The notes under the pieces were generated by a model. That model was not told where the DNA came from, ran no database searches, and worked only from the letters and a program-made list of their open reading frames with translations. Positions 192 through 21,052 of a DNA stretch of 33,482 nucleotides are shown piece by piece. The DNA lies in contig JAYWGM010000034.1 of assembly GCA_043778225.1 (NCBI GenBank), forward strand, positions 1 to 33,482, read 5' to 3'. Positions within the stretch are counted from its first letter, which is position 1. The number at the start of each line of letters is the position of its first letter. Source of the DNA: Deinococcales bacterium. GTDB lineage: Bacteria > Deinococcota > Deinococci > Deinococcales > JAAFIG01. The position numbers and the translations under genes were made by a program.

Positions 192-2483
192 TTATTCCAG
201 TAAATCGGTCAATTGCCTTGGATTGACATCAATCCGTACCCGTACACCACCTTCACGGTAAGCGCGGGCTGGCTCAAGCAGGTGGGTTAGGCGTTCCCGA
301 GTTTGGGCGCGTACCAACAATTGATAGACAAATAAGCCTTTGACTCGAGCAATACTGGCGGGGGCGGGACCGAGCAGTTCAAGCCCAGCCGCACCTCGGT
401 CACGAATCAAGCCACCAAGTTTGCTGGCGGCAATTTCAGCATTGTTTTCTCGCCGCGCTGATATTTGTACTTGTGCCATTTGGGCATAGGGTGGGTATAA
501 AAAAGTTTCGCGGCTCTCGAGTTCGCTCCTTGCAAAACTGCTGGCATCCTCGAGATTCTGAATTTGCGTGATTGCTTTGTGCTGCCCGTCAAAGGTTTGA
601 ATCAGTAAAAGCGGCGCTCGGGTCGGATGCCACTCCAAGAGGGTTCGTAAGAGCGCATGGAAGCGCTCTCCACTGCGAAAATCTGGACTCGAGTGCATTG
701 TGTCGGCAAAAGTCAGGGCAATTAAAGCAAGGTTTGGCGGCGGCGGTAAGCCCAAGACGGCGGTTGTCCCCACCACAATTCCACTCTCGCCGCTATAGAT
801 TGGCTCAAGGTCGTCTTTGAAGTCTCGGTCAAAGCGGTAAATTTTACTTTGTGGCAAAAAGGCTTTTAATTCACGCCCAATCCATTCGCTGCCGGGTCCT
901 TTGGGCGCTAACACTGTCCCCTCGCAGCTTGGGCAACGGGTTGGCGGCACAGTCTTGTAGCCACACTGATGACACTCGAGATTTCGCGCCCCTGCATGGA
1001 ATTTAAGCGGCACATCGCAATGCGGGCAGTAGGGAGTCCAGCCACAATCCTTGCAGCGCAGCAGCGCACTGTAGCCACGGCGCGGCGCAATCACCACGGC
1101 TTGTCGTCCGCGTTCGGCAATTTGGCGCAAAACCCGTTTGAAGTTGGTCGAGATTGGAAAAGAATCCCTTGCCAGTGGCATATTTGACATTGGTCCTGTT
1201 TCGGGAACTTTGGGCGGCTTAGAAAAGTCAACAATATGTAAACGTGCGCTTGGTGGTGGTAAAATCACACCGCGCAGCGTGAGGCTTTCGGTGGCTGGCA
1301 CAGCCCCCACCCATAAGACTCGAGCCGATGCTAGTTTGCCACGGGTCAGCACCGCATCTGGTACAAACAGCCTCGAGCCACCATGAAGTTTCCAAGCGTC
1401 GGACAATTCATCCTCAAGAATGATGAAAGCCAAATCTGGAAGCGGCGCAAACAATGCCATTGGTGTGCCGAACAGCACCGAAACTTGCCCAGTGCTAGAA
1501 GTGCGCCAAACCGCTTCACGCTCGAGTGGACGCAAATTGCCAGAGAGCATCGCACTTTTAGCAACCCCACCCAGTGCCACAAAAGCTCGCTCGAGCCGCA
1601 GATGGTCGGGCGCGAGGTACAGCACACTCTGCCCAAGTTTGACGGCTCGCTGTATCAGTTCGCGCAGCACCGCAAATCGCTCTCGAGGTTTGCCACCGTG
1701 CAGTCGTGCGACTGACTCAATTTCCAGAAGATTGGCGACTTCAAGGTGCAGGGCTTTGACAATCGGAGCTTCAAATTTTGTGGCAAAGTCGGGTAAGTCC
1801 ATCGGCAAAGGCTCGAGTTCGCGCACGGCTACACCTTTCTCGAGCAACTTGCTGACCAGACCAGTCGAGACCTGAGCGGCTTCCGCCCACGCTTTTAAGG
1901 TATAAAAACCATTGTTTTCGCGCAGCACCTCAAGCGCGACAGCTTGCTTTGGTGTTGCTGCAAAATCGGTATTTGCAGCTTGGATAATTTCTCGAGATGG
2001 CTGCACCAGCCTTACATCCTCGAGCAATAAACCTTGTCCGCGCAAGAATTCTAATAAACTCGGGTCGAGGCTGGCAGCTTCTTGGCGCTGCTCGAGTTTA
2101 TTGGCACTTTCGGGCAAGCCACTGACCCCACGCACCAACTGTACCCAGTGGCTGATGTGTGGCTCGAGACCAAACGGCATAAAATCTTGATAGACCAAAC
2201 CGTCAAAACACATTCCCTGCTTTGCGACCTCGAGCAGGGCGGCGCAGGCATCGGGGGTAAAAAGTGGCTCGTCATCCAAAACCGCAATCGTGTCTTTAAG
2301 GCTCAGTCCACGCTCGAGTGTGCCATCCAAGACTTCAAGCACCACACCAATGCGGCTGCCCCCTTGCCACGGCACAAGGACTCGTTTTCCTAGCCCCCCG
2401 AGTGGATTGCCGACGGGCTGGAAATCATAAGCTGGAAGTGGAAGCGCCACCGCCACACGCCATCGAGGATGCTTCATCTTCAC
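192..2483 (-). CDS. priA: Primosomal protein N' (PriA), helicase motifs degenerate
   Basis: N-terminal VALP...GKRVLVPW...GVV domain. RRGYS followed by a CxxC-CxxC-CxxC-CxxC zinc region, and C-terminal PDFRxxER, YPPY, LGPAPA and IDVNP motifs. Walker A is replaced by HGGKPRER. Start is GTG 2483 or ATG 2477. Confidence 0.95.
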   Translation of the reverse strand: MKMKHPRWRVAVALPLPAYDFQPVGNPLGGLGKRVLVPWQGGSRIGVVLEVLDGTLERGLSLKDTIAVLDDEPLFTPDACAALLEVAKQGMCFDGLVYQDFMPFGLEPHISHWVQLVRGVSGLPESANKLEQRQEAASLDPSLLEFLRGQGLLLEDVRLVQPSREIIQAANTDFAATPKQAVALEVLRENNGFYTLKAWAEAAQVSTGLVSKLLEKGVAVRELEPLPMDLPDFATKFEAPIVKALHLEVANLLEIESVARLHGGKPRERFAVLRELIQRAVKLGQSVLYLAPDHLRLERAFVALGGVAKSAMLSGNLRPLEREAVWRTSSTGQVSVLFGTPMALFAPLPDLAFIILEDELSDAWKLHGGSRLFVPDAVLTRGKLASARVLWVGAVPATESLTLRGVILPPPSARLHIVDFSKPPKVPETGPMSNMPLARDSFPISTNFKRVLRQIAERGRQAVVIAPRRGYSALLRCKDCGWTPYCPHCDVPLKFHAGARNLECHQCGYKTVPPTRCPSCEGTVLAPKGPGSEWIGRELKAFLPQSKIYRFDRDFKDDLEPIYSGESGIVVGTTAVLGLPPPPNLALIALTFADTMHSSPDFRSGERFHALLRTLLEWHPTRAPLLLIQTFDGQHKAITQIQNLEDASSFARSELESRETFLYPPYAQMAQVQISARRENNAEIAASKLGGLIRDRGAAGLELLGPAPASIARVKGLFVYQLLVRAQTRERLTHLLEPARAYREGGVRVRIDVNPRQLTDLLE

Positions 2484-2740
2484 CGTTTGCGGTAAGTGCG
2501 TTTACTACGGCGTTCAATACCCATAAATGTACCTGAGTCCTCGCCAAGATAAAAAATAACTCGGTCTGGGATGATTTTGAGACGTGAATAGGGCGTTCCT
2601 ACAAATTGTTCTATATCTCCAAGTTGATGTAAGCAGTATAATTCGATTTTCTGGTAAAGCAAGACTTGGCGTTCTGGGGGATATAATTGCTCGAAATTAC
2701 GTTTGGCTTTTTCGGAATCCCAAGCCCATAAGGGGTTCAT
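2480..2740 (-). CDS. Putative RelE/ParE-superfamily toxin
   Basis: 86 aa with the GDI...G....RL....RVIF....R...Y pattern of RelE-like toxins. Overlaps the upstream small ORF (ATGA) and priA. Confidence 0.6.
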   Translation of the reverse strand: MNPLWAWDSEKAKRNFEQLYPPERQVLLYQKIELYCLHQLGDIEQFVGTPYSRLKIIPDRVIFYLGEDSGTFMGIERRSKRTYRKR

Positions 2741-2973
2741 TTTCGTCTGCCACGCTTTTCCACTTCGGCAATCAAAGTGGCTTCTTGAGTTGTAGGAACA
2801 ATCGCTGGTGCATTTTTGATTGACTCTCGAAGTTTTGCGACTCGGATTGTATTTTGAGCTTCGGCTAAAATTTGCTCGAGTGCCTGTTTTCGGCTTCGAA
2901 TGCCACGGGCTTTTCGAATATGGTCGAGATGGGCGAGGGCAGTTTTTGAGATTGACTGTTCAAGCATCGTCAT
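2737..2973 (-). CDS. Putative antitoxin (RHH-like N-terminus)
   Basis: 78 aa, directly upstream of and coupled to the RelE-like ORF, with its own -10 box. Confidence 0.55.
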   Translation of the reverse strand: MTMLEQSISKTALAHLDHIRKARGIRSRKQALEQILAEAQNTIRVAKLRESIKNAPAIVPTTQEATLIAEVEKRGRRK

Positions 2974-2979
2974 GGCGCT

Positions 2980-2985
2980 ATTCTA
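2980..2985 (-). promoter_or_regulatory. -10 box of leaderless promoter (TAGAAT-N6-ATG)
   Basis: The minus strand reads TAGAAT AGCGCC ATG, with no Shine-Dalgarno between box and start. Confidence 0.65.
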
Positions 2986-3043
2986 CTCTGCTCGAGGCGT
3001 AATGCCAAATGTATGATGCTAACGAGGAAGGCGATTTAGGGAT

Positions 3044-3337
3044 TTATTCATATGCGGAGTCATGGTCCGGATGCAAGGATAAAAACTGAACCTCGTCGGC
3101 TTGGCGGCGTACTACAGCGCGGCATTTGATGGTGATACGAATTGTATATTCATCATTTCCGATGCTTTCCCACTTTAAGCCAGAATCACGGTATATCAGA
3201 CTCCAACTGAGTTGTTTGAGTTTGCGAAAAGTCTTGAGTACAGCAATTTGCTCGGCTTTCTCGAGCGCAAAGAATTGATTCTGAAATTGCTCGTCGTTCA
3301 GGTCTAATTTAGGCACGCTGGAGTTCCATGGCTTCAA
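3044..3337 (-). CDS. Putative RelE-like toxin (LDLN...LKWE...HPDHDSAY type)
   Basis: 97 aa with Y.IRIT.K.RAV and a C-terminal HPDHDSAY. This is a RelE/ParE-fold pattern. It overlaps the upstream small ORF. Confidence 0.55.
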   Translation of the reverse strand: MKPWNSSVPKLDLNDEQFQNQFFALEKAEQIAVLKTFRKLKQLSWSLIYRDSGLKWESIGNDEYTIRITIKCRAVVRRQADEVQFLSLHPDHDSAYE

Positions 3338-3554
3338 ATTCGGCTAAAGTTTGCCCGAGGACACGACGTTCAAACTCATCTAAATCTGTTTCCTTGAAGG
3401 CTCGAGCATCAAGGCGTTCTTTGGCAGCGAGGATTTGAGACTTGAATGGCTCTTGTTGATACCAAGGCAATTGAGTCTCGAGCCACTTATCAAGTTCAAT
3501 CATCTCAATCGGTGTTAATTCCTGAATCGCTTTTTTAATCTCGAGGACACTCAT
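3309..3554 (-). CDS. Putative antitoxin / small acidic protein
   Basis: MSVLEIKKAIQELTPIEMIELDKWL resembles small antitoxin-like proteins. ATG 3554 is preferred over the track start because it follows CAGAAT-N6 and avoids overlap with the upstream gene. Confidence 0.55.
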   Translation of the reverse strand: MSVLEIKKAIQELTPIEMIELDKWLETQLPWYQQEPFKSQILAAKERLDARAFKETDLDEFERRVLGQTLAEFEAMELQRA

Positions 3555-3574
3555 CGTTTTATTCTGCCTCGAGT

Positions 3575-4816
3575 TTAGGTATTTTGCAACCAAGTCAGGG
3601 TTTTACTGACCAACTTGTCAAAAGCCACGACACACAATTCCAGATGTTGCTCGAGCGTGTCTTCGATTTTATTATGCGAAATTCCGCCTAAACTCTGGAC
3701 AAACATCATCACCGTTGGAATGCCAACTCGAGCTATCTCGGCGGCATCGTGCAGTGGTCCGCTTGGCAATTGGTGGCTTGTGCCGCACGTCTCGAGAATC
3801 GCTTGGTTGCAAAGTTCAATCAGTTTTGGATCAAATGGGATTGGTTCGATTGACCAAATTTTATGCCAAGCCACTGTACAGCCTTCCTCAAGGGCAAATT
3901 TTTCCGAGGCACTTTTAGCCGATGCCAGCATCCCAGCCAAGACCCCAGCATCTAGGTCGCGCTGGTCGAGCGTCATTTCGCAGCGTCCGACCACCGCCGT
4001 GACTATCCCCGGAAAGGTTTTAAGGCTGCCAACTGTACAAACTGCATCCAAATGCTTTTTGGCGATTTCTCGAATCTCGAGCGAGAGTTTAGCGGCTGCC
4101 CCCAAGGCATCGCGCCGTACTTTCATGGGGGTACTGCCAGAGTGCGCCTCTTGACCAAAAAAAGTAATGCCGTGCCGCTCGACTCCTTTTGTGCCTAACA
4201 CCACACCAAGCGGTAGTCCTAGCCCCTCGAGAACAGGACCTTGTTCGATGTGCAGTTCTAAATACGCCCCAGCCTTGGCTTTTGCCTTCCCAGCCTCGAG
4301 TGCCATATCCAAATCAATGCCGTGTTCACGCACCGCGTCCTCGAGCCGAATACCGTCTTTGTCTGTCCGATTTTTAAGGTCGTTTGGGTCAAAAAAACCA
4401 GACACAGCACTCGAGCCAAATAAACTTCTGCCAAAGCGTGCGCCTTCTTCATCCGCCCAATCCACCAAACGCACTGTAAGCGGTGGTTTGCCATTGAACT
4501 CGGTGGCAATTCGGCGCAGCACCTCGAGACCCGCCAGCACATTGAGGCAGCCATCGAGCCAGCCACCGTTTGGCACACTGTCTAAATGCCCACCAATCCA
4601 GAGTTCGCGTTCTGATTCGCCTTTTAATGTCACCCAAAGGTTTCCAGCTTGGTCTTGGGAGATTTCTACAGGCAAACCCTCGAGTTTGGATTTTAGGAAA
4701 TCCCGAGCCGCCACCCAAGTTGGTGTAAACGCCACGCGCTGTGCGCCATTGGCGTTGCCAGTTAAGGCACGGAGTTCTTTGAGTTCGGCAACGGTTCTTT
4801 GAGGATTGAGAGACAT
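3575..4816 (-). CDS. Zn-dependent M20-family amidohydrolase (hydantoinase/carbamoylase / allantoate amidohydrolase-like)
   Basis: Motifs GGHLDSVPNGGWLDG, DEEGARFG, YLELHIEQGPVLE, HSGSTPM, SGPLHDA and GGISHN. Confidence 0.93.
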   Translation of the reverse strand: MSLNPQRTVAELKELRALTGNANGAQRVAFTPTWVAARDFLKSKLEGLPVEISQDQAGNLWVTLKGESERELWIGGHLDSVPNGGWLDGCLNVLAGLEVLRRIATEFNGKPPLTVRLVDWADEEGARFGRSLFGSSAVSGFFDPNDLKNRTDKDGIRLEDAVREHGIDLDMALEAGKAKAKAGAYLELHIEQGPVLEGLGLPLGVVLGTKGVERHGITFFGQEAHSGSTPMKVRRDALGAAAKLSLEIREIAKKHLDAVCTVGSLKTFPGIVTAVVGRCEMTLDQRDLDAGVLAGMLASAKSASEKFALEEGCTVAWHKIWSIEPIPFDPKLIELCNQAILETCGTSHQLPSGPLHDAAEIARVGIPTVMMFVQSLGGISHNKIEDTLEQHLELCVVAFDKLVSKTLTWLQNT

Positions 4817-4840
4817 AAAGCAGTTTACCGCAGTCTCGAG

Positions 4841-5176
4841 TCAGACTGCTGGGTTGAATTCTGTGTACTGACGTAACTGCGGAGGATGGAAAGCCAAAAC
4901 TATCGAATCTTTGGGAACACCTTCTTTGAGCAGCAGTGAAGCAATGCCAACTTCAGTATTATCATCTTGAATCCAAATTAAATTGTCTTTGACATCAATA
5001 TACACAACAACATAAAAAAAACGTTTTGACCCTTCCCAGCCATATTTTAGTAGCTGATAACGATGGTGTGTTGTATCAAATAAAAGTTTGGGTTGTACAG
5101 GATTTGATGGACTGCTTAATAAGCTATAAGACTCGAGTACCCGCATAACGACTTGGCTTAACTGTTCGGTATCCAT
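4841..5176 (-). CDS. xisI: XisI-family protein
   Basis: Motifs LFD...HRYQL...GW, IWIQDDNTEVGIA..L...GVPK..IVLAFHPP..RQYTEF. Confidence 0.92.
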   Translation of the reverse strand: MDTEQLSQVVMRVLESYSLLSSPSNPVQPKLLFDTTHHRYQLLKYGWEGSKRFFYVVVYIDVKDNLIWIQDDNTEVGIASLLLKEGVPKDSIVLAFHPPQLRQYTEFNPAV

Positions 5177-5295
5177 TGTAACTCCTCAAACAATTCGCGT
5201 TTGCCAATACTTAACTCGAGTGGGTCATCGGTAATCTTCCAGCCTTGGCGCTCCAAGGCTCGGCGCACGATTGCATGAAAAATATCTCGAGCCAT
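5158..5295 (-). pseudogene. xisH: XisH-family gene with large internal in-frame deletion (45 aa)
   Basis: The XisH N-terminus MARDIFHAIVRRALERQGWKITDDPL is joined directly to an XisH-like C-terminus EELQWIP. It overlaps the xisI start as intact pairs do. Confidence 0.8.
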
Positions 5296-5301
5296 AAACC
5301 A

Positions 5302-5310
5302 AGTATAGCA
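5302..5310 (-). promoter_or_regulatory. Extended -10 leaderless promoter of xisH-xisI
   Basis: The minus strand reads TG-C-TATACT-TGGTTT-ATG. Confidence 0.7.
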
Positions 5311-5338
5311 AATCACTTTGAATTTCTTGCCTATCTCG

Positions 5339-5347
5339 TGATACCTT
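5339..5347 (+). promoter_or_regulatory. Extended -10 leaderless promoter of udk
   Basis: TG-A-TACCTT-N7-ATG(5355). Confidence 0.5.
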
Positions 5348-5354
5348 TTGCACC

Positions 5355-5990
5355 ATGACCACCATTGCAACCGCCATCAAACCACCCTTTATTATTGGCG
5401 TTGCGGGTGGCACTGGCAGTGGCAAAACCACAGTCACCGAAAGAGTTCTCGAGGTGGCTGGGGTCGGCAGTGTGGCGATTTTAGCCCAAGACAGTTATTA
5501 CCGTGACCAAGCCGAGTTACCGCCCGAAGTACGCCGACATATCAATTACGACCACCCAGATGCTTTTGACTGGACGCTAATGCTCGAGCAACTGCGGCGT
5601 TTGCGCGATGGAGAACCGATTTATTCGCCGATTTATGATTTTACCCACGATACCCGCGCCAGCAGTACGATTGCGATTTTACCTGCGCCAATTATTGTGA
5701 TCGAGGGGATTTTAGCACTTTATGACCCAGAACTGCGTTCGCTTTTTGACCTCAAAATTTTTGTGGATGCCGACCCCGATGTACGTTTTATTCGGCGACT
5801 CGAGCGTGATGTGCGTGAGCGTGGGCGCACCCCAGAAAGCGTCATTCATCAGTACCTCGAGCTTGTTCGCCCAAGCCATTTACAATTTATTGAACCGACC
5901 AAGCGCTATGCCGACGTGATTATTCCGCATGGCGGCATGAATCAGCCAGCCCTCGAGATGCTAGGAGCGCGAATCAGTGCGGTTTTGTAA
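5355..5990 (+). CDS. udk: Uridine kinase
   Basis: Motifs IIGVAGGTGSGKTT, QDSYY, NYDHPDAFD, RRLERDVRERGR and FIEPTKRYADVIIP. Confidence 0.97.
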   Translation: MTTIATAIKPPFIIGVAGGTGSGKTTVTERVLEVAGVGSVAILAQDSYYRDQAELPPEVRRHINYDHPDAFDWTLMLEQLRRLRDGEPIYSPIYDFTHDTRASSTIAILPAPIIVIEGILALYDPELRSLFDLKIFVDADPDVRFIRRLERDVRERGRTPESVIHQYLELVRPSHLQFIEPTKRYADVIIPHGGMNQPALEMLGARISAVL

Positions 5991-5994
5991 AGCA

Positions 5995-6065
5995 GGGTTA
6001 AAAGGGGAAAAGTAGAAAAGGGAAAGAGGTGTTTTAACCTTTTGACCTTTTAACCTTTTGACCTT
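5995..6065. repeat. Bipartite octamer-periodic inverted repeat element, copy 2 (opposite orientation to copy 1)
   Basis: GGTTAAAAGGGGAAAAGTAGAAAAGGGAAAG ... (TTTTRACC)x4. It lies between convergent udk and murE and supplies the last codons and stop of murE. Confidence 0.85.
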
Positions 6066-7536
6066 CAATCACGGCTCGAGCTTCGGCGTTTTCGTCCCAT
6101 GGCAAGATTGCCGCGCCGCGTTCTAAGGTGCGTTCGTGTCCTTTGCCTGCCAGTAAAACCGTATCGCCAGCCTTTGCCATCTCAATTGCAGCTTGAATCG
6201 CCTCGCGGCGGTCTGGGATAAGTTCATAACTGCTGCCACCAGCCGCAAGAAACGCAGTTTTCAGGCTCTCGAGAATCAGGTTGGTATCTTCGGTACGACT
6301 GTCTTCTTCGGTAAAAATAACGTGGTCAACGGTTTTGGCGGCGGTTGTACCGATGCCTGTCCGCCGATTTGGGTCGCGTTGTCCAGCTGCACCAATCACC
6401 AGAATCAGTTTGCCTGTCGTGGTTTGCTGTAAGGTCGTAGCAGCCACCTCGAGACTTGCGCCCGTGTGGGCAAAATCGTTAATCACCCGAAATGGCTCGG
6501 CTTGTAGAATCTGCATCCGTCCGGGGACACCCGCAAAGGTTCTTAGACCCTGCTCAAGTTGAGTTTCAGTCAGCCCAAGGTAATCACCAATGGTGTAAGC
6601 GCAAGCGGCATTGCTGGTGTTAAATCCACCAATCATTGGTAAAAACAATTCGTATTCCTCAAAACCATTTTTTAAGGTGAATTCTATTCCAAAAGCCGTT
6701 TCAGTCAGCTTGATGGGTTGCCAGTTAAATTCATCACCAAAAGCAATAATTTTCGGGTACTCGAGCTTTGTTTTGGCTCGAATGGCTGCAAACTCCGACC
6801 AAAATTGCGGCAAAAGACTTTTCTCAATCACCGCCACACGGCTTCTGGTTGGAAGTTTGGCTTTGGCGGCAAAATACGCAGCTTCCGAGCCATGAAAATC
6901 CAGATGGTCGTCTGGATAAAAATTAATCAGCGCTCCAATTTCAAATGCTATTCCTGTCACTCGCTCGAGGTCAAGTGCATGGCTTGAAATTTCCATGACC
7001 ACATGGGTACAACCAGCCTCAAGAAACCGACTCAACAATTCGTAGACCTGAGGTGATTCGGGGGTGGTGAAATGCCCTGGCAAATGCTCTTCGTGTCCAG
7101 CAAAACGCACCGCCACGGTACTCATCTGAGCAACCTTTAATCCAGCCGACTCGAGCAAATGATACACCAAGGCAACGGTGGTGCTTTTGCCCTTAGAACC
7201 TGTAATTCCGATTATTTTCATTTTTTCGTCTGGGCGACCCCAGATTTCTTTTGCCAACAGGGCGCAGGTTTCTCGAGGATTTGGGACTTGGATATACGGC
7301 ACACCCAACTCGAGAGTCTGGCTGCCCACCACAGCTACTGCGCCATGCTCGAGTGCCTTTTGAATAAAATCATGACCATCTAAAGGTGCGCGACCCGCCA
7401 ATGGAATTCCAGATGTAGCCACAAAAATAAATCCGGGTTTGACCAGCCTCGAGTCCAGTGCAATGCCAGTAATTTCGGGGTTGCTTGTGGGGGCGTGGTT
7501 AATTTTGGCTTGAATCAGCAGTTCGGAGAGGTTCAT
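6034..7536 (-). CDS. murE: UDP-N-acetylmuramoyl-L-alanyl-D-glutamate--diamino acid ligase
   Basis: Motifs DSR..KPG, DGHDFI, GITGSKGKST, TTPE, MEISSHAL, DHLDFHG, GVPGRM, DFAHT and LAGKGHE. The DAP-specific DNPR motif is replaced by EDSR, consistent with ornithine as in Deinococcota. Confidence 0.96.
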   Translation of the reverse strand: MNLSELLIQAKINHAPTSNPEITGIALDSRLVKPGFIFVATSGIPLAGRAPLDGHDFIQKALEHGAVAVVGSQTLELGVPYIQVPNPRETCALLAKEIWGRPDEKMKIIGITGSKGKSTTVALVYHLLESAGLKVAQMSTVAVRFAGHEEHLPGHFTTPESPQVYELLSRFLEAGCTHVVMEISSHALDLERVTGIAFEIGALINFYPDDHLDFHGSEAAYFAAKAKLPTRSRVAVIEKSLLPQFWSEFAAIRAKTKLEYPKIIAFGDEFNWQPIKLTETAFGIEFTLKNGFEEYELFLPMIGGFNTSNAACAYTIGDYLGLTETQLEQGLRTFAGVPGRMQILQAEPFRVINDFAHTGASLEVAATTLQQTTTGKLILVIGAAGQRDPNRRTGIGTTAAKTVDHVIFTEEDSRTEDTNLILESLKTAFLAAGGSSYELIPDRREAIQAAIEMAKAGDTVLLAGKGHERTLERGAAILPWDENAEARAVIEGQKVKRSKG

Positions 7537-7542
7537 GGTTTT

Positions 7543-7548
7543 AGGATA
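7543..7548 (-). promoter_or_regulatory. -10 box of leaderless murE promoter
   Basis: The minus strand reads TATCCT AAAACC ATG. Confidence 0.65.
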
Positions 7549-7680
7549 GCGCGAACAGACATCCCATGTGATGGATTTGTGTTTTATTTTCTTGAGCGCA
7601 TAAACTTTGGAAATACCAAGCCAATACGTCGCTGCCTATTGCCAAAACTCAAGATGACATACTTGGGATGATTCTGCGCC

Positions 7681-7749
7681 TTGACTTTTGGCTGCCAAAC
7701 CCGATATTTTAATCTATAGTAAAACAGTCGGATTACTTTACTATAGGAG
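7681..7749 (+). promoter_or_regulatory. Promoter/operator region of iron-uptake operon
   Basis: TTGACT (7681)-N18-TATTTT (7705). Perfect 10-bp inverted repeat CTATAGTAAA (7714-7723) / TTTACTATAG (7737-7746). AGGAG RBS at 7745-7749. Confidence 0.55.
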
Positions 7750-12777: not shown

Positions 12778-13781
12778 TTTTAGCCAAGGCTCGAGACTCG
12801 CGGGTTTTGTGGCTATGGCTGGTTTTTCTAATCCTGTTGGGCATTTTACTATTTACTTTTTTACTTTCGATTTCGGTGGGCGCAGCCAACATTCCTCTAC
12901 TTGAGGTTTGGCGACTGGTGTTCAGCCCAGACGACACAACCAACAGTTTAATTGTGCAAACGCTACGGCTTCCAAGGGCGGTGGTGGCTTTGATGGTCGG
13001 CTCAAGCCTTGCCATCAGCGCTACGCTTTTACAGGGCGTGACTCGCAATCCATTGGCGGGACCCGGCATTCTCGGAGTCAATGCTGGGGCTGCCCTTGGC
13101 ATTCTGGTTGGAATTGTATTTTTCCCCAGCTTACCATCTGGGCTTTTTATTCTGATGGCGTTTATGGGCGGGGTAGGTGCGGCAGCCCTGACTTTTGGCG
13201 TGACGGCGGCAGTCGGTATCACCCCAGTGCGTTTGGCACTGGCTGGTATTGCCGTGGGTGCAATGTTGGCAGCTTTAACAAGTGGTATTCAGATTTTATT
13301 CGAGGAACGCGCTCGAGCCGCGATTTTTAGCTTAGCGGGCAGTCTGGCTGGGCGGACATGGGAACACGCCCAAAGTATTGCGCCGTGGTTTATGGTCTGT
13401 GTGGTTCTGGCGTTCTTTTCGAGTCAGTTGCTGAATCTGGTATCGCTTGGCGAGGACGTGGCTCGAGGGCTTGGGGTCAATGTCAATCTGGCACGGTTTG
13501 GACTGGCTGGCTTGGCGGTGCTGCTTGCCAGTGCTGCCACCAGTGTGGCTGGACCGATTGGTTTTCTGGGTCTGATGTCGCCGCATTTGGCACGTGGCTT
13601 GGTTGGGACAGATAACCGCGTTGTACTGCCACTTTCTGCGCTAATAGGCTCGAGTATTTTACTGCTGGCAGATGTCGGCGCGCGGGTTGTGGATATGCCG
13701 CTCGAGACTCCTGTGGGTATTTTAATCACCGCCATTGGCGCACCTTTTTTTGTCTATTTGGCGCGGCGAATGAAATTTTAA
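12774..13781 (+). CDS. Iron-complex ABC transporter permease (FecCD family)
   Basis: Motifs LRLPR, QGVTRNPLAGPGILGVNAGA, GPIGFLGL..PH and ETPVG..IGAPFF. Confidence 0.93.
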   Translation: MILAKARDSRVLWLWLVFLILLGILLFTFLLSISVGAANIPLLEVWRLVFSPDDTTNSLIVQTLRLPRAVVALMVGSSLAISATLLQGVTRNPLAGPGILGVNAGAALGILVGIVFFPSLPSGLFILMAFMGGVGAAALTFGVTAAVGITPVRLALAGIAVGAMLAALTSGIQILFEERARAAIFSLAGSLAGRTWEHAQSIAPWFMVCVVLAFFSSQLLNLVSLGEDVARGLGVNVNLARFGLAGLAVLLASAATSVAGPIGFLGLMSPHLARGLVGTDNRVVLPLSALIGSSILLLADVGARVVDMPLETPVGILITAIGAPFFVYLARRMKF

Positions 13782-16700
13782 TCAGCCGCCATGCTTTGGC
13801 TTTCGTTTTTAATGCTGTAGACCCTCGAGATACCGCCTGTGTCGGTGGTCACCCCCCAGAGCGCATCGGCAATTTCCATCGTGGCTTTTTGATGCGTCAC
13901 CAAAATAAACTGTGTGCCTTGGTCGGCAAGTAAGCGCAAAAAATGGGTAAAACGTCGGATGTTGGCTTCGTCAAGCGGTGCATCCACTTCGTCAAGTGCC
14001 GCAAAAGGCAATCCTGCATGACCTTCGGGCGCTCTGGAGAGCGCAAATAAAAACGCCAAAGCCGCCATGGTGCGTTCGCCGGTGCTTAATAAGTGCAGCG
14101 CTCGGGTGCGTTTGCCTTTGGGTGTGACCCGCAATGCTAACCCTTCGAGTGCGCCAGTCTCGTCAAGTACAGTCTCGAGGTCGCCTTCGCCACCAAGCAA
14201 TTCGCTGCTGTATTCCTTAAAGGCTTTGGCAACCCTGCCGATGCTGGTTTTGAGCCGCGCTGTGACATCGCGCTCGAGTTCGTCCAGTGCCACTTCAAGT
14301 TCAGCAACCGCCGCTAACGAATCGGCAGCCCCAAGCTCGAGTTCAGACAGTCGTAGCTGTTCACGGCTAAATTCCTCGGCTGCCAGCATATTGACCGCAC
14401 CAATCTGCTCGAGTCGCTGACGAATTTGGTTAGTACGGGTTGTCCAGTTGCGCGGTGTGCCGTCTGGGTCGGGTAACTCGAGCAAAGTTTGAATATGGCT
14501 TTGGCGGTCGGTAAATTCTGTGCCGGTCAGCAGTTCTTGTTCGGTCGTCTCGAGGTTGGTTTCGCGCCGAGCAATGGCTAAGCGAGCATTTTCGATATTT
14601 TCGCGCTCAACTGAAACTTTTCGGGTGGTGCTGCTCAGGTCGGTCTCGAGCAACAGGCGCTGTTTTTCCAAATGCTCGAGTTCTTCTTTGGCTTCTTGCA
14701 CACCAAGATTGGTGGCTTGGGTCTCGAGGGCGACAATTTCTGGGTTGGCAATTTCTAAGCGAGTTTTCAATTCAAGTTCTTGTAAATAAATTTCTTCGAG
14801 TCGTTCACCGATGCGGCTGGCTCGAGCCTGATTTTCTTGGCTGCGTAAGAGGGCGGTTTGGTATGCCCGTTGCTTTTCGAGGTACAACGCAGCTTGGTTT
14901 TGGGCTTCGCGCCATGTATTTTCGCGGCTTCGCTCGGTGGCTCGAGCCACTTCAAGTTGGCTGGTGGCAGCCAGAACAACTTGCTCTTGGGGGGCTAAAT
15001 CGGGCAAACTGGCATCGCCTATGGTGCTGTTGGTGCTTGGCTCAAGTTGCCCAAGGCTGTTCTCGAGTTGTGCCACCCGATTCGCCAGACTTTCGCGCTT
15101 GGTTTCGGACTGGACTGCCAATTGCCGCGCCGCATCGGTTTGGCGGCGCAGGTCTACCACGCGGGTTTCCATGCGGGTCACGGCTTCTCGGGCTTCTCGA
15201 GCCATTTCTCGGTCGGTGTCGAGGGTTTTTTCGAGTTTGGTAAATTCTATCTCTAAGCCCTCGAGTTCGGTTTTGGTTTCCTCGAGTCGCCGCAACTCGG
15301 CAAAAGTCTCACCTGTTGTGTCGCGCCCACGCCCACCCGTGACTGCCCCGCCCGCCTCGAGCAATTCGCCCTCTCGAGTTACCAAGCGCGGTCGGTCTCG
15401 GTATGCCCGAGCCAACCGCAAACCAACATCGAGCGTTTGGACAATTAAAGTCTCGCCAAATAAGCTCTCGAGAACAAGCTGATAGCCCGACTCAACAAGT
15501 TCGGCAGCATAGCCAACCACGCCATCCTCCGAGGCAATTGGTAAATTGCGCCGTAGTGGTCGGGTTTTTAGAATATCGAGCGGTAAAAACGTAGCCCGTC
15601 CGCCAGACTTTTTTAAGCCCTCAATGATTTTTTTAGCGACCTCGCCATTTTCGACCACGATATTTTCGATGCGCCGCCCAAGGGCAGCCCCGACCGCCGT
15701 TTCGAGGTCTTGCGGCACACGCAACAAATCTGAAACAGGTCCAATTATGCCTTTGATGCCACTGCCAAGCGCCCGCCGTGGACCTTCGGAGAGGTACGAG
15801 TGGGCGTTTTTGGCGGCTTCTAAACGGGCAAATTCTTTTTGCAGTGGCGCTCGAGCCGCCCGCAATTCGATTTGTCTCGAGCCACCAAGGCTTAACCGCG
15901 CTGTGATACTGCCAGCTTCGCGCTCGAGTTTGTCCGCCCCTTTTTGGGCGCTCTCGAGTTCAATTTTGCATTGCTCGAGGGCTTGGGCGCTGCTGGCTGC
16001 ATCTTTTTGGGCGGGGAGCAGTTCGCTTTTTGTTTGCTCGAGTTCTTGCCAAAGTGTGCCGCGCCGTTCGTCGGCACGGGCGTTCATTTCCGATTGTACC
16101 CGAACTTCACGCTCGAGTTTATCGCGCTCAGAGCGCATTTTTGAGAGTTCAATTTTGGCATCCAATTCAGCCTGAGAAGCAACCCGCAAAGCAGCTTTGG
16201 CAGCCATAAAATCCGTCTCAAGGGCTGCCAAGTCGGTATTGGGCGCTTCTGGCTCGAGTGGCAGCGTTTGCACTGCCAAGACCTGAATTTCGGATTCGAG
16301 CCGCAAGCGCTCAGACTCCAAGGCTTTGGCGTTGGTATCGGCATTGGCAGCCCGTTCTCGAGCCAATTTGGCTTCGCCGCGTAAGCGCTCAAATTCGGCG
16401 GTCAGTTGGGCAAAACTGGCTTGTTTGGCTTCGCGGGTCAGCCGCAGTGCCTCGAGGCTGGTGCTGAGGCTGCTAAGGCTCTGACTGGCGTTTTCGGCTC
16501 GGGTTTCGGTCTCGAGTAAATCTAAATTCAGTTTAGCAATTTCCTCGCGCAGTACACGCACCTTGGAGCGGCGAATTGCCGACTCGAGGGCGCTGACTTC
16601 ATGGCTTAGCGCCACATATTCTTGGGCAATGACTGCATCTTTTTCGAGCTTGACGACCCGATTGCGGACTTCGTGGGTTAAATCCTCGGCTCGAGATAAA

Positions 16701-17254
16701 TGCAGCTTGGCTTGTTCAAGCCGTTCGATGCTCTGAGCGCGGCGGTGGGTGGCTCTGGACAATCCAGCCGCTTCCTCGAGATAGCCAAGCATGGTGGTTG
16801 GGTTGGCGCTAATGACTGCACCAATTTCACCCTGTCCAACCACCGCAATACCGCCCGGTCCAAGTCCAGAACCGCGCAGTGCATCGTGTAAATCGCGGAC
16901 ACGCACATTCTTGCCACCCAATTCAAGCTCCGAGTCGCCATCGCGGTATAAGCGCCGTGTAATCGCTAAACCGCCCGAAGGTTGCTCGAGTTCAACTTGG
17001 ACTTCGGCTAAATTCAGGGCTTGTTTACCGCTCGAGCCATGAAAAATCAGTTCGGTGCTTTCTTTGACCCGCAATTCTCGGGTTCGGGCGGTGTGGCTTG
17101 CCCAGCGAATGGCTTCAATCACATTGGATTTGCCCGAGCCGTTGGGTCCGATTACGGCATTGACTTTGGGTGAAAACTCGAGTCTGACCCGTTCGCCAAA
17201 ACTCTTAAAGCCTAAAATCGTGATACCGCGAATACGAATCGTCACGAACCGCAT
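13778..17254 (-). CDS. smc: Chromosome segregation protein SMC
   Basis: GFKSF and Walker A GPNGSGKSN, long coiled coils, hinge motif GRATFLPL, signature LSTGE and Walker B/D-loop LDEVDAPLD. Confidence 0.96.
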   Translation of the reverse strand: MRFVTIRIRGITILGFKSFGERVRLEFSPKVNAVIGPNGSGKSNVIEAIRWASHTARTRELRVKESTELIFHGSSGKQALNLAEVQVELEQPSGGLAITRRLYRDGDSELELGGKNVRVRDLHDALRGSGLGPGGIAVVGQGEIGAVISANPTTMLGYLEEAAGLSRATHRRAQSIERLEQAKLHLSRAEDLTHEVRNRVVKLEKDAVIAQEYVALSHEVSALESAIRRSKVRVLREEIAKLNLDLLETETRAENASQSLSSLSTSLEALRLTREAKQASFAQLTAEFERLRGEAKLARERAANADTNAKALESERLRLESEIQVLAVQTLPLEPEAPNTDLAALETDFMAAKAALRVASQAELDAKIELSKMRSERDKLEREVRVQSEMNARADERRGTLWQELEQTKSELLPAQKDAASSAQALEQCKIELESAQKGADKLEREAGSITARLSLGGSRQIELRAARAPLQKEFARLEAAKNAHSYLSEGPRRALGSGIKGIIGPVSDLLRVPQDLETAVGAALGRRIENIVVENGEVAKKIIEGLKKSGGRATFLPLDILKTRPLRRNLPIASEDGVVGYAAELVESGYQLVLESLFGETLIVQTLDVGLRLARAYRDRPRLVTREGELLEAGGAVTGGRGRDTTGETFAELRRLEETKTELEGLEIEFTKLEKTLDTDREMAREAREAVTRMETRVVDLRRQTDAARQLAVQSETKRESLANRVAQLENSLGQLEPSTNSTIGDASLPDLAPQEQVVLAATSQLEVARATERSRENTWREAQNQAALYLEKQRAYQTALLRSQENQARASRIGERLEEIYLQELELKTRLEIANPEIVALETQATNLGVQEAKEELEHLEKQRLLLETDLSSTTRKVSVERENIENARLAIARRETNLETTEQELLTGTEFTDRQSHIQTLLELPDPDGTPRNWTTRTNQIRQRLEQIGAVNMLAAEEFSREQLRLSELELGAADSLAAVAELEVALDELERDVTARLKTSIGRVAKAFKEYSSELLGGEGDLETVLDETGALEGLALRVTPKGKRTRALHLLSTGERTMAALAFLFALSRAPEGHAGLPFAALDEVDAPLDEANIRRFTHFLRLLADQGTQFILVTHQKATMEIADALWGVTTDTGGISRVYSIKNESQSMAAD

Positions 17255-17814
17255 TCCTTATTGGTAAATGGCTTGCTGGTCGGGATGTGTCCGCCAACGC
17301 TGGCAACCGGTTGCCCAGCCAGCAAAAATTTGACTTTTTGAACCCCTTCTAAACCCAGCATCGTGTTGGTGATGCCGCAAAGCAACAATAATTCACCTTG
17401 AGTACCCAATTGAATTTTTTGCCAAGCGGCTTGTAAATCAATAAAAACCGTGTCTTTGTTGGCAAAAACGGTCGGTGTTGGCAAATTTTTAGCCAAAGTT
17501 AAAGCACCATCGACTTTTGGTCCTTCGATATAATTTCGCATCGCGGTGCTGGCTCGAGTCTCGAGGTCGTCGAGTTCTAAACCCGCATCGCGTTTTTCGA
17601 CCGCAAAGGATTTTCCATCTGGAGTCACAAAGTACAATTCAAGTTGTAAGCGCGAACGCGAACGGTCTTCGGGTTGCAACAATTTGGGGTCTATGGCTAA
17701 AGCCGTTGGGCGGGTCTGAAAATAGCGCACCGTTAATGTAGCCGACAACAGCAAGACCAAAATAATGTTCCAAGGCGAGAACAACCAGCGAAAAAAAAGT
17801 TTGACCCACCTCAT
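17242..17814 (-). CDS. GerMN-domain membrane-anchored protein
   Basis: N-terminal TM helix. Motifs LYF, GP, GELLLLCGITNTM...GVQKVKFL..G.....GGHI. Confidence 0.8.
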   Translation of the reverse strand: MRWVKLFFRWLFSPWNIILVLLLSATLTVRYFQTRPTALAIDPKLLQPEDRSRSRLQLELYFVTPDGKSFAVEKRDAGLELDDLETRASTAMRNYIEGPKVDGALTLAKNLPTPTVFANKDTVFIDLQAAWQKIQLGTQGELLLLCGITNTMLGLEGVQKVKFLLAGQPVASVGGHIPTSKPFTNKECGS

Positions 17815-19241
17815 TTTGGCGGTACTCCAGTAACTGGTTTTTTGACCGGCACGGGTTTACCAAGGTACTCGAGAATCCCATACGCAATCGCTTCGGCACG
17901 TTGTACACTTTCGTCGGCATTTTGTAAAATTAAGCGGTCGGCTTGGCTCGATAAATACCCCAGTTCTAAAACCACGGCTGCCTTGGGAGCGCGTTCTAAA
18001 GCCGTATGGCTGGTCAGGCTCGAGACCCGCGCTGCCCCTTGTGGCACACTCAGGATTCTGGCACTGATGGTGTCGGCAAGGCGCTGTGAAGCTGCTCTAG
18101 GGGCAAGAAAACGCGCCAAGAGTTTTCGGTCACGCTCCGATTTTGGGTTCTCGAGCGCACTTCGCCCAGCCTCGAGAATTCCTTCGGCGGGTGCGTCTGG
18201 CGATAGATAAAAGATTTCTGCGCCGTTCAAACTGGTTTGCGGCATACTCGAGAGGTGCAAAGAGACAAAAACATCGGCTTTAACCGAGAGGGCTTGGCGT
18301 TGCTGGTTAGAAACGGTCTGGTCGCCTTCGCGGGTGTATTTCATGGCAATGCCACGTGGCGCTAAAAATGCTGCAATGCGCCGTGCCATGGATAAGGTAA
18401 TGTCTTTTTCGCGCAGACCACCCGATACAATTCCAAGGTCGTTGCCACCATGTCCGGGGTCGAGAACCACAATACTTGGGCGTGCCTCGAGTGCCACCGC
18501 CAAACGACCAAAGCGTGGACCGACATCAATAATCACGCGAGCCGGAATACTTGGCGCAGCCGCCACTGCAAAGGCGTTAAAACCATAATCGGGTTTGAGC
18601 TTAATTCTGACCTCGAGCTTTTGAGCGTTTTGTTTGACTTCAAAAATATCCACAAATTTGCCGCCAACTTGGTACGGTGCGGCATCGCCAGTTGTAAAAC
18701 GCAAGGTCACAATCAACTCGTTTTTTTCAATTCGTCCCGCAAAGCTAACGTCGCGGTCTACCTCGAGAACGATGCGGTCAGATTGGTCGGTTTTATCGCT
18801 CGAGACGGTCGTCAAACGGGCTTGTGGCATACCCACCAGATAGCGACCACCAGACTCTGCAAAACTCGCACCAGCCGCTTCGGCAACGGTGCGAACTGGA
18901 ATCAGCAACTTGCCTGTGCTGCTTAAACCGGCGGCGGGCGATTTTTGTTTGATACCATTGACTTCTACACCATTGGTCCAACGGGTCGAGGCTTCACTGG
19001 CATTGTCGGCAAGTGCGAGGCGAATAATTTTGCCACCTTGGGTTAAAATCACGGCTTCGTTGGTGACTGTGTACTCGAGTCCAAGGGCAGCCGCAACCTC
19101 GAGTCCAGAATAGGCAAAACCATTGTACATCAAGGCTTTGTAGTTACTGCCCAACACTTGCAAATCTCGAGACTGGACACTTTGACCAAGTGCCAACCAA
19201 GCCGTTGTCAGCAATAAGCCAAGCCAAATAAAGCGCTTCAT
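17811..19241 (-). CDS. N-acetylmuramoyl-L-alanine amidase (Amidase_3) with signal peptide
   Basis: Motifs VVLDPGHGG.D, EKDITL, ADVFVSLH and AVVLELGYLS. The likely start is ATG 19241 (MKRFIW) after GGAG, since the longer track ORF overlaps smpB. Confidence 0.88.
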   Translation of the reverse strand: MKRFIWLGLLLTTAWLALGQSVQSRDLQVLGSNYKALMYNGFAYSGLEVAAALGLEYTVTNEAVILTQGGKIIRLALADNASEASTRWTNGVEVNGIKQKSPAAGLSSTGKLLIPVRTVAEAAGASFAESGGRYLVGMPQARLTTVSSDKTDQSDRIVLEVDRDVSFAGRIEKNELIVTLRFTTGDAAPYQVGGKFVDIFEVKQNAQKLEVRIKLKPDYGFNAFAVAAAPSIPARVIIDVGPRFGRLAVALEARPSIVVLDPGHGGNDLGIVSGGLREKDITLSMARRIAAFLAPRGIAMKYTREGDQTVSNQQRQALSVKADVFVSLHLSSMPQTSLNGAEIFYLSPDAPAEGILEAGRSALENPKSERDRKLLARFLAPRAASQRLADTISARILSVPQGAARVSSLTSHTALERAPKAAVVLELGYLSSQADRLILQNADESVQRAEAIAYGILEYLGKPVPVKKPVTGVPPK

Positions 19242-19280
19242 TGGTACATCTCCACGTGGCGCTTCATCGGTACATCTCCA
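19233..19280. repeat. 22-bp direct duplication (21/22 identical, period 26) at smpB-amidase junction
   Basis: GCGCTTCATTGGTACATCTCCA (19233-19254) and GCGCTTCATCGGTACATCTCCA (19259-19280). Confidence 0.9.
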
Positions 19281-19689
19281 TCTCACGTTTGGCGGTTTTG
19301 GTTTTCTCAGCTTCACGTTTGTCGTGCAGTTTTTTGCCTCGAGCCAGCGCAATCTCGAGTTTTATTCGTCCATTCACAAAATACAATTTGACCGGCACGA
19401 TCGTTAAGCCTTTACGAGTCACCGAACCAAATAAATCGGTCAGTTCTTTGCGGTGCAGCAATAATTTGCGTTTGCGACGTGCTTCGTGATTGTTGTACGA
19501 AGCCTTGCCGTAAGGCGGAATATACAAATTTTCTAAAAACAGCTCATTGCCTTCAAATCGCGCATAGGAATCGCGGAAATCCACCCCGCCGCCACGCATT
19601 GATTTAATTTCTGTGCCACGCAACTCGACCCCTGCTTCAAAGCGGTCAAGCAATTCAAATTCAAAACGAGCGCGGCGGTTCTCGAACAT
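19264..19689 (-). CDS. smpB: SsrA-binding protein
   Basis: Motifs NRRARF, EAGVEL.GTEIKS.R, RKRKLLLHRKE and LARGKKLHDKRE. Confidence 0.98.
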   Translation of the reverse strand: MFENRRARFEFELLDRFEAGVELRGTEIKSMRGGGVDFRDSYARFEGNELFLENLYIPPYGKASYNNHEARRKRKLLLHRKELTDLFGSVTRKGLTIVPVKLYFVNGRIKLEIALARGKKLHDKREAEKTKTAKREMEMYR

Positions 19690-19695
19690 TTTTTA

Positions 19696-19701
19696 ATTGT
19701 A
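19696..19701 (-). promoter_or_regulatory. -10 box of leaderless smpB promoter
   Basis: The minus strand reads TACAAT TAAAAA ATG. Confidence 0.7.
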
Positions 19702-19742
19702 CCTAAGCCAAATGAGGACTGTGAAACTATGGTACACCACGA

Positions 19743-19805
19743 CCTATGTCAGCCTAGTAGACTGCACCCTATGTTCGCCTAGTATACTGCACCCTATGTT
19801 CGCCT
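19743..19805 (+). repeat. 25-bp tandem repeat (about 2.5 copies) containing -10 box plus ATG
   Basis: CCTATGTCAGCCTAGTAGACTGCAC / CCTATGTTCGCCTAGTATACTGCAC / CCTATGTTCGCCT. Confidence 0.9.
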
Positions 19806-21052
19806 CACGTCCGCAAGCATCACCAAATGTCTTTGGTTGGTACGCGGTTGGCAGCTTCTCGAGCCTCAGCCTTGGCTTGGCTGCTGCCCTCAATTTTTTA
19901 GACAGCAGCCTTGCTTTATTTTTGATTCCCGCGAGTGCTTTGGCGGTTTTGAGCCTTGTCTGGTTGGTGGCTCGCTTGACTGGGCAAATCTGGGCAGTCT
20001 CGAGCAGTCTAGGTTTGTTGGTCTCGAGTCTGCTGGCGGTGCTGCTTGGTGCTTGGGGGTGGTTGCTGCCGGGCTTAGTGGCGTTTATGAGTTTGCTGCC
20101 TTTATTGGCACGGGCTGGAGATTTACCACGCGGTTCAGAAGCCGACCTGTGGGGCTGGATTTTTGTTTTTCCGGCGGTTTTTTTACTGATTGTCTGGCAT
20201 TTTGCCCCAGCCTTGTATGCTTTGGTTTTATCGTTCCTCAAAGATTTTAATTTCTTAAAACCGCCAGAATTTGCTGGACTTGAGAACTACACTGCCCTGC
20301 TCCGCGACCCCGTTTTTTGGCAGAGCCTACTCAATAGTTTTTGGTATGTGGTTGGCACAGTCCCAATTGGAATTTTTATCGCCACCATCACAGCCATTTT
20401 GCTGAACGAGAAAGTTCGTGGCTTGCCAATTTTTCGCACCCTCTATTTTTTGCCCTATGTCACGGCTTTAACGGCAGCCGCCGCCGTCTGGAAATGGATT
20501 TACAACCCAGAATTTGGCTTATTGAATGCTGCACTTGGCACAAAAATCGCGTGGCTTGATAACCCCAACGGTATTTTTGCGCTTTTAACTGGTCTCGAGT
20601 TACCACAATGGGCAGCCGGACCAAGTGTGGCATTGTGTTCGATTATGGTCATGAGTGTCTGGCATCATTTGGGTTATAGCGTTGTGATTTTATTGGCTGG
20701 CTTACAAACCATTCCGCCCGAATACTACGAAGCCGCCAGTTTAGATGGGGCAACGTGGTGGGATAAAGTTCGCCATATTACTTTTCCGCTACTTTCTGCC
20801 ACAACTTTCTTTTTGGCAATTACGGGCTTAATTGGCGCATTTCAGGTTTTTACGCAAATTCTGGTGCTTACGCCAGATGGTGGGCAACTCAAAGACACCA
20901 CTACGATTGTCAAATACCTTTACGACAAGGGTTTTCGTGACAGCAACTACAGCTATGCCAGCGCGATGGCGTTTGCGCTGTTTGTGATTGTCTTTGTGGT
21001 CACGTTGGTGCAGAACCGAATTTTAAGTCAGCGCGTGACTTACGATATTTAG
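19796..21052 (+). CDS. Carbohydrate ABC transporter permease (MalF/UgpA-like) with N-terminal hydrophobic extension
   Basis: GLENY..L..DP.FW, FRTLYFLP, EAA loop (YYEAASLDGA) and YSYASAMA. Start ATG 19796 lies 7 nt after TATACT. Confidence 0.9.
   Translation: MFASRPQASPNVFGWYAVGSFSSLSLGLAAALNFLDSSLALFLIPASALAVLSLVWLVARLTGQIWAVSSSLGLLVSSLLAVLLGAWGWLLPGLVAFMSLLPLLARAGDLPRGSEADLWGWIFVFPAVFLLIVWHFAPALYALVLSFLKDFNFLKPPEFAGLENYTALLRDPVFWQSLLNSFWYVVGTVPIGIFIATITAILLNEKVRGLPIFRTLYFLPYVTALTAAAAVWKWIYNPEFGLLNAALGTKIAWLDNPNGIFALLTGLELPQWAAGPSVALCSIMVMSVWHHLGYSVVILLAGLQTIPPEYYEAASLDGATWWDKVRHITFPLLSATTFFLAITGLIGAFQVFTQILVLTPDGGQLKDTTTIVKYLYDKGFRDSNYSYASAMAFALFVIVFVVTLVQNRILSQRVTYDI

Follow-up and report, generated by a model that had tools for sequence, protein, structure and literature searches.

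What maintains the six-letter palindrome CTCGAG at 173 copies in a single contig of an uncultured member of the order Deinococcales? The contig (C34; 33,482 bp, hereafter the window) belongs to an assembly, G000, of 4.03 Mb in 107 contigs, the longest of ~139 kb, that is 89% complete and has a GC content of 48.7%; a 16S rRNA search had no match in it. In 100 dinucleotide-preserving shuffles of the window, the mean number of CTCGAG sites is 3.66 (standard deviation 1.74, maximum 8). Most of the real sites (151, or one per 138 bp) lie in positions 192 to 21,052, and the final 12.4 kb (21,053 to 33,482) holds 22. A preliminary description of this locus had estimated one site per 100 to 150 bp in core genes, and its hand counts for priA, a Mur ligase gene and smc are exactly those obtained when the site list is compared with the open reading frames (ORFs). 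The same comparison recovers the sites that it reported in short intergenic gaps and as a tandem pair (Table 1). Within the long ORFs of the window, the three reading frames contain 96, 30 and 25 sites, versus 18.8 in all after synonymous shuffling.

The excess extends to the whole genome, where a comparison of observed with expected counts had been proposed. G000 contains 24,877 copies of CTCGAG, one per 162 bp, which is 26.7-fold more than the 931 expected from base composition and makes it the most frequent of all hexamers. The second most enriched six-letter palindrome reaches only 2.5-fold. Of the 64 such palindromes, 58 are under expectation and 34 are under 0.1 times expectation; there is a single copy each of GGGCCC, GACGTC and AGGCCT in the 4 Mb, and CGATCG occurs 182 times (0.20 times expectation). 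Shorter words are avoided as well, with GGCC present in 131 copies (0.009 times expectation) and GATC at 0.13. CTCGAG accounts for 68% of all TCGA, and the remaining palindromic NTCGAN words are almost missing. A maximal-order Markov expectation was dropped as uninformative, because CTCGA and TCGAG are almost confined to CTCGAG itself.

Several results locate the pressure in the DNA word rather than in the proteins encoded. Among 2,981 crude long ORFs of G000 (3.42 Mb), coding sites are distributed over the frames as 12,479, 4,244 and 4,386, so that frame 0, in which CTC GAG specifies Leu-Glu, holds 59%. These ORFs contain 6.17 sites per kb and the remaining DNA 6.20. The 870 clean spacers (113 kb, GC 43%) have 6.09 per kb versus 0.176 expected, a 35-fold excess. 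A within-gene synonymous shuffle, in which proteins, dipeptides and the codon usage of each gene are unchanged, leaves 2,195 sites (standard deviation 20, five replicates) of the 21,109 observed, a difference of ~10-fold, and shuffling the order of codons leaves 970. Positions flanking the sites contain no more than 0.033 bits each, and the repeated unit is therefore the bare hexamer, not one embedded in a longer repeat or in a mobile element.

CTCGAG occupies 69% of Leu-Glu pairs, 56% of [SPTA]-Arg-[VADEG] triplets and 42% of compatible x-Ser-[Ser/Arg] triplets. Relative to codon usage outside the word, where CTC has a codon share of 9%, the odds favouring CTCGAG in these three coding classes are 100, 51 and 36, and in spacers they are 35. 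One pressure of similar size therefore acts on all types of site, with a scaled advantage of ~3.6 to 4.6 per site. We discarded an argument for a set-point density, which took equal coding and spacer densities as its premise, because a uniform odds ratio of 35 to 100 yields both densities.

CTCGAG is thus a genuine highly iterated palindrome (HIP). The double-stranded hexamer is subject to a fixation bias, independent of frame, strand and coding status, that keeps it at saturation. This bias requires the exact word and prevails over codon choice and over some amino acids. The preliminary description had suggested that some process maintains the DNA word throughout the genome, rather than a peptide or codon preference, and had singled out two findings that would speak against this: loss of the excess under a codon- and dipeptide-preserving shuffle, or confinement to one frame. 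Instead, the excess persists in such a shuffle, in all frames and in noncoding DNA at one density, and recurs in every genome sampled from the family (below). It could be argued that CTCGAG merely reflects codon usage, selection on peptides or a small mobile repeat, since Leu-Glu sites predominate and codon usage does suffice to explain CTCGAG in a Thermus-like genome and a viral contig described below, both of high GC. This explanation, to which we give practically no credence, is already refuted by the tenfold excess over the protein-preserving shuffle, the 35-fold excess in clean spacers, the odds in frames 1 and 2, the unconserved flanks and the low background share of CTC.

HIPs are best known from cyanobacteria. 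HIPs have been defined as palindromic oligomers exceeding 16-fold over composition (Xu, Lawrence and Durand 2018, PMC5861425), and CTCGAG exceeds that level both in the window and in the genome. It is also found in all frames and in noncoding DNA beyond what codon or peptide use predicts, and is conserved in orthologues above other words. In these respects it resembles HIP1 (GCGATCGC) and the alternate cyanobacterial HIPs, each being one exact palindrome far above 16-fold in all frames of genes and between them. HIP1 is likewise conserved in orthologues beyond background, missing from imported DNA and lineage-wide at any GC content, in genomes that also avoid many other palindromes. Conservation in orthologues and a 10- to 90-kb periodicity are described for it (Xu et al. 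2018, PMC5861425). The two differ in that HIP1 is an eight-letter word of cyanobacteria and CTCGAG is a six-letter word of Deinococcota. CTCGAG is also denser, at 4 to 7 per kb compared with 0.43 per kb in one HIP1-rich isolate, where 0.2 per kb marks the low-frequency boundary (PMC5861425), and neither a cognate nor an orphan methyltransferase was found to be conserved with it. Our search of the literature found no paper describing CTCGAG over-representation in Deinococcales. This word is a second, denser case of a HIP1-type repeat, in a different phylum.

Words that differ from CTCGAG by one letter occur at 0.15 to 1.41 times expectation. The three transition neighbours are mildly elevated (1.16 to 1.41) and the transversion neighbours are at 0.15 to 0.95. 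Variants at the outer position are somewhat commoner (6,184) than those at the other two (3,503 and 4,106). CTTGAG, the product of deamination, stands at 1.41 times expectation and is enriched ~3 times among Leu-Glu codon pairs. Both C-to-T neighbours are equally frequent, and there is therefore no methyl-C hotspot. These variants are a halo of mutational decay around 25,000 sources, not a funnel that has been drained into the word.

The consequences for proteins are considerable. Leu-Glu occurs 18,010 times in G000 versus 7,758 expected, and this 2.32-fold excess is the largest of the 400 dipeptides; Glu-Leu stands at 0.96 and Ser-Ser at 1.58 times expectation. In rpoB, the five family genomes examined have 7 to 10 sites in 3.1 kb (2.3 to 3.3 per kb), and at ~9 of 22 site positions the residues are absent at that column from other family members and most outgroup rows, as where Leu-Arg-Val has become Ala-Arg-Val. 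The rpoB alignment is illustrative only, as some outgroup rows were mis-framed by the longest-ORF rule in high-GC DNA. The 68 tRNA genes contain 6 sites versus 33 at genome density. Only 17 of 2,029 genes have under 15% of compatible positions occupied, and the 19 CTCGAG-free stretches longer than 1.5 kb all have GC contents of 31 to 47%. The pressure is slowed only by strong constraint, as in tRNA genes and rpoB, and low-GC imported islands are still unfilled. The tRNA genes were called with ARAGORN on the 4-Mb assembly, and four of the six that contain CTCGAG belong to a tRNA gene cluster at ~9.9 to 12.8 kb of contig C19.

Conservation in orthologues had also been suggested as a check, and among close relatives it is evident. 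In 55 pairwise gene alignments between the window and relatives at ≥70% amino acid identity (the pairs are not independent), hexamers at CTCGAG sites are identical in 57, 46 and 62% of cases by frame, compared with 23% for other hexamers, a ratio of ~2.5. Where the residues themselves are conserved, the figures are 68, 57 and 79% versus 33 to 35%. One-letter differences at the compared sites are mostly transitions (94 of 106). At 45 to 70% amino acid identity, positional memory is lost: when Leu-Glu is kept in both proteins, the partner has CTCGAG at 70 of 103 pairs not encoded by CTCGAG and at 72 of 138 pairs that are. The sites are therefore maintained yet interchangeable over the distances found within the family. 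smc was the gene chosen for orthologue comparison within the family.

Neighbouring sites interfere with each other and are spaced more regularly than expected by chance. The gaps have a coefficient of variation of 0.883, versus 0.977 ± 0.008 when occupancy is permuted among compatible positions within each gene, and with a 12-bp exclusion built into the null model the values are 0.873 and 0.935 ± 0.006. Gaps of 12 to 50 bp and of 500 to 1000 bp are in deficit. No helical periodicity of 10 to 11 bp was found in the spacing. Set against the overall scarcity of close pairs is an excess at a spacing of 7 bp (CTCGAG-N-CTCGAG), with 123 instances in the genome versus 30 to 53 for spacings of 8 to 11; any base may stand in the middle, and the pairs have no context in common.

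We surveyed 121 sampled genomes of the order. All 19 genomes of the window's family, which represent five genera with SMC identities down to 49% and GC contents of 46 to 63%, contain 12,028 to 35,442 copies of CTCGAG, and the reversed word, GAGCTC, is almost missing from most of them. Deinococcus-like genomes are depleted (40 to 942 copies). The main Thermus-like genus (g9) has ~1 per kb, and a member of the Thermus-like group (G004) has 39 versus 48 after shuffling, so codon usage accounts for the level in this genome. Several genera in three other families have 1.5 to 3 per kb. We examined 40-kb stretches from five genomes of these other families, and four of them (families f5 and f2) have an excess in every frame and in uncalled DNA, with 9 to 14 sites versus 0.6 to 1.1 in frame 1, 7 to 13 versus 0.9 to 1.8 in uncalled DNA, and Leu-Glu odds ratios of 3 to 12. 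The fifth (G008, family f4) has a weak excess (2 versus 0.2 in frame 1 and 4 versus 1.1 in uncalled DNA). The preliminary description implied that the trait is restricted to one lineage, which is too narrow: the genomes sampled from two other families of Deinococcales have the weaker excess in all frames. The trait is graded through the order, and the window's family is the extreme.

Viral contigs with three clustered CTCGAG were also surveyed, yielding at least 128 listed stretches, and among these matches the contigs with clustered CTCGAG are high in GC. No phage of the window's family was recognised among them. The densest one examined (L294, from IMG/VR, 16 kb read, GC 66.7%) has 108 sites, or 6.7 per kb. 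Codon usage explains its sites, and no mimicry was therefore seen in it: its clear genes have 10, 12 and 15 sites compared with 8.0, 6.7 and 11.4 after synonymous shuffling. It does not avoid other palindromes. This contig is a useful negative control, demonstrating that codon usage alone can give high counts at high GC.

The preliminary description saw no responsible gene in the window, and in agreement with this no methyltransferase domain was present in the 17 window ORFs scanned. Elsewhere, G000 has ~25 DNA methyltransferase genes of all classes, in keeping with its avoidance of palindromes, but none of them looks like an agent common to the family. Two TaqI-like gamma enzymes were considered for this role and set aside because they are present in only 3 and 2 of the 19 genomes. 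A C5 methylase was found in 18 of the 19, with no match in G035 (91% complete, 21,883 copies of CTCGAG), and the N4/N6 beta class has no match in the closed genome G025. We clustered matches to five Pfam families (PF00145, PF01555, PF02384, PF07669 and PF02086) from six genomes (G000, G005, G020, G025, G035 and G040; 89 to 94% complete); no orthologue group is common to all six, and the largest spans three. Target specificity is unreadable from methylase sequences, and non-orthologous enzymes with the same target are compatible with this result. CTCGAG density was also tried as a filter to separate resident from mobile methylase genes, and was abandoned because nearly all have 3 to 7 sites per kb.

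Vsr has no match in G000, which is 89% complete. The XhoI endonuclease family (PF04555) also has none, although a control search for this family matched 0 of 14 genomes. Competence genes are present: the ComEC domain and DprA are each found in 18 of the 19 family genomes, and the misses fall in metagenome-assembled genomes that are 79% and 87% complete. On contig C89 of G000 (positions 21,497 to 24,507), dprA lies ~1.6 kb upstream of, and on the same strand as, an ORF for a D12-class (Dam-like) methyltransferase. This pairing was rejected as a shared feature, since it was not seen in G005 or G025.

We tentatively favour, as a possibility well short of probable, the reading that CTCGAG may tag self DNA and be recognised when DNA is taken up or recombined, a role now argued for HIP1 as well. 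A sequence-exact and probably dimeric protein would read the word on DNA in natural transformation, homologous recombination or both, and alleles that bear it would be more likely to be taken up, retained or used as recombination substrates. In this way the word would spread one allele at a time to about one copy per 100 to 200 bp, at which point an extra copy per fragment would add little. Our preference is based on the doubled peptide, the absence of the word from imported DNA, its bias towards weakly constrained positions, the interference between neighbours, and results on HIP1. HIP1 makes transformation more efficient, with a total gain of up to >100-fold if methylated, and has been suggested to act like Chi (Kamoku and Nielsen, bioRxiv 10.1101/2024.09.10.611283). 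Its abundance also co-varies with pilus and competence proteins, and an uptake watermark has been proposed (Rodriguez-Cruz et al. 2026, PMC13756078). Reading of CTCGAG may be independent of methylation because, unlike for HIP1, no conserved methyltransferase is evident. The exactness and two-fold symmetry of the word suggest a reader akin to restriction enzymes, or another dimeric protein, and not a pilin-type receptor.

Uptake sequences, to which the preliminary description aptly compared the word alongside HIP1, provide another parallel. The uptake signal sequences (USS) of Pasteurellaceae and the DNA uptake sequences (DUS) of Neisseriaceae are in genome-wide excess and approximately double the peptides they encode, are missing where a gene has no relatives, favour genes and residues under weak conservation, and occur in genomes with competence genes (PMC2817400, PMC1939737). 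Their accumulation is explicable by a drive acting at the level of alleles (Findlay and Redfield 2009, PMC2817400; Bakkali 2007, PMC1939737). Of their features, G000 has peptide doubling, absence of the word from imported low-GC DNA, fewer sites in conserved genes such as rpoB with a tendency to fall at variable residues, and competence genes, and it lacks an asymmetric core, a flanking consensus and enriched mismatches.

A number of points weigh against a self-DNA tag. Its mechanistic part is drawn wholly from the statistics of sequences. USS and DUS are non-palindromes of 9 to 12 nucleotides that occur ~1 per kb, with an extended consensus, tolerance of mismatches and enriched mismatched forms, whereas CTCGAG is an exact palindrome of 6 bp with no flanking consensus, is found 6 times per kb and has one-off variants enriched no more than 1.4 times. 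The effect of HIP1 on transformation depends on methylation (bioRxiv 10.1101/2024.09.10.611283), yet no family-wide methyltransferase was found here. Competence genes are near-universal in Deinococcales and hence do not discriminate. Chi, used with RecBCD or AddAB, is similarly a short over-represented word that marks self DNA for recombinational repair, but it is an oriented, non-palindromic octamer. RecC (PF04257) is found in 0 of the 121 genomes by a search that matched the E. coli control and did not extend to AddAB, and the classical RecBCD/Chi mechanism is therefore excluded. Counts within spacers are approximately Poisson, and the evenness of spacing is modest. Finally, a uniform advantage per site explains the densities and fits any distributed binding function equally well. 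A more specific version of the self-DNA tag, in which CTCGAG would be a methylation-independent watermark with an exact protein reader, graded through much of Deinococcales but inverted in Deinococcus-like genomes, and arisen independently of HIP1, is a doubtful proposition that we nonetheless keep in view.

One such binding function is that of an abundant nucleoid or bridging protein, with selection keeping about one site per persistence length of DNA. Equal coding and noncoding densities would be expected of it, as would the even spacing, short-range repulsion and few gaps of 500 to 1000 bp, and a palindrome suits a dimer; a nucleoid role was argued for HIP1 by Xu et al. (PMC5861425). However, no candidate protein was found, spacing lacks helical periodicity and the sites are interchangeable at family distance, making this explanation rather unlikely. 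Known nucleoid-site systems, moreover, number their sites in the tens to hundreds, compared with 25,000 here. CTCGAG might instead stop or divert a degradative or defence nuclease, so that foreign or phage DNA without the word is destroyed, while alleles without it are more often resected and restored from a sister copy of the chromosome, so that biased gene conversion spreads the word. The extreme restriction pressure implied by avoided palindromes and numerous methyltransferase genes is in accord with such a marker, as are the low-GC foreign islands without CTCGAG, the ability of a palindrome to function from either end, and the Chi-like effect suggested in the HIP1 preprint. The absence of RecC from the 121 genomes sampled, with no other candidate nuclease identified, counts against it, as does the lack of mimicry in the densest contig examined among the listed viral matches, and we consider it unlikely.

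The model that fits worst is methylase-linked biased mismatch repair, which Elhai (2015, PMC4390886) proposed for HIP1 and which the preliminary description mentioned as an example. A methylase would mark CTCGAG or TCGA, and short-patch repair would convert near-cognates into it. Each cyanobacterial HIP is accompanied by a cognate methylase, and the surplus of variants at the outer position is what Elhai saw for HIP1 (PMC4390886); G000 itself has many methylases, including the two TaqI-like enzymes. We nevertheless disfavour this model as quite improbable, since Vsr was not found in G000, neither the C5 nor the beta class is universal, the TaqI-like enzymes are sporadic, and no methylase orthologue group spans the six best genomes. 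In E. coli, very-short-patch repair by Dcm and Vsr shapes the frequencies of CCWGG-related words and can raise the target word of the methylase. That system differs from the present one not only in its enzymes: CTTGAG, the neighbour that such repair should drain, is enriched, and the equality of the C-to-T neighbours offers no sign of a methyl-C hotspot.

HIP1 has been specific to one phylum for thirty years and its function is only now being approached, so that an independent case would turn a single case into a class. Both Cyanobacteria and Deinococcota are reputed to be polyploid. The CTCGAG bias runs from none to ~100-fold odds within one order, and variation of this kind lends itself to comparison with gene content, as was done for HIP1 in cyanobacteria (Rodriguez-Cruz et al. 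2026, PMC13756078). If cultured strains belong to the groups with the weaker form, it may permit tests at the bench. The doubling of Leu-Glu demonstrates that a pressure on DNA only can reshape a proteome, and the word separates native from imported DNA in these genomes. If the watermark reading is true, lineages that are naturally competent and face heavy restriction pressure would have converged on palindromic watermarks.

Table 1. Positions of CTCGAG sites and genes in the window
Feature	Positions	Strand	Details
CTCGAG-dense field over core genes and spacers	344..20599		151 sites, 7.2 per kb (site list)
priA	192..2483	-	18 CTCGAG; 18 of 39 synonymous-compatible positions occupied
Mur ligase gene (murE-like)	6034..7536	-	10 CTCGAG; 10 of 19 compatible positions occupied
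smc	13778..17254	-	36 CTCGAG; 36 of 78 compatible positions occupied
Tandem pair CTCGAG-T-CTCGAG, CTCGAGTCTCGAG	17553..17565		Sites 7 bp apart (site list)
Example of a spacer site	19354..19359		Between the end of an amidase gene (19352) and the start of a permease gene (19697)
Giant surface-type protein gene	21834..33437	-	3,867 amino acids; PQQ_2 (beta-propeller) and CarboxypepD_reg domains; GC 42.8%

The giant gene in the last part of the window is poor both in compatible positions and in filled ones, with 19 of its 67 compatible positions occupied (28%) compared with a genome median of 61%, and it includes a site-free run of 2,457 bp (30,435 to 32,891). Its ORF extends into the region of the contig end. 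The main contigs found in public data, which come from one study, are identical to the window.

The window also contains a dispersed spacer repeat, at positions 95 to 190 and 5,985 to 6,075, that is built of the 8-bp units GGTTAAAA and GGTCAAAA and their complements. It is located at the ends of genes, does not contain CTCGAG and folds into a long hairpin (-29.7 kcal/mol for a 91-bp copy). This copy has 140 BLAST matches in G000 and is also matched in relatives of the same genus, and the repeat looks like a member of a REP-like or terminator-like family.

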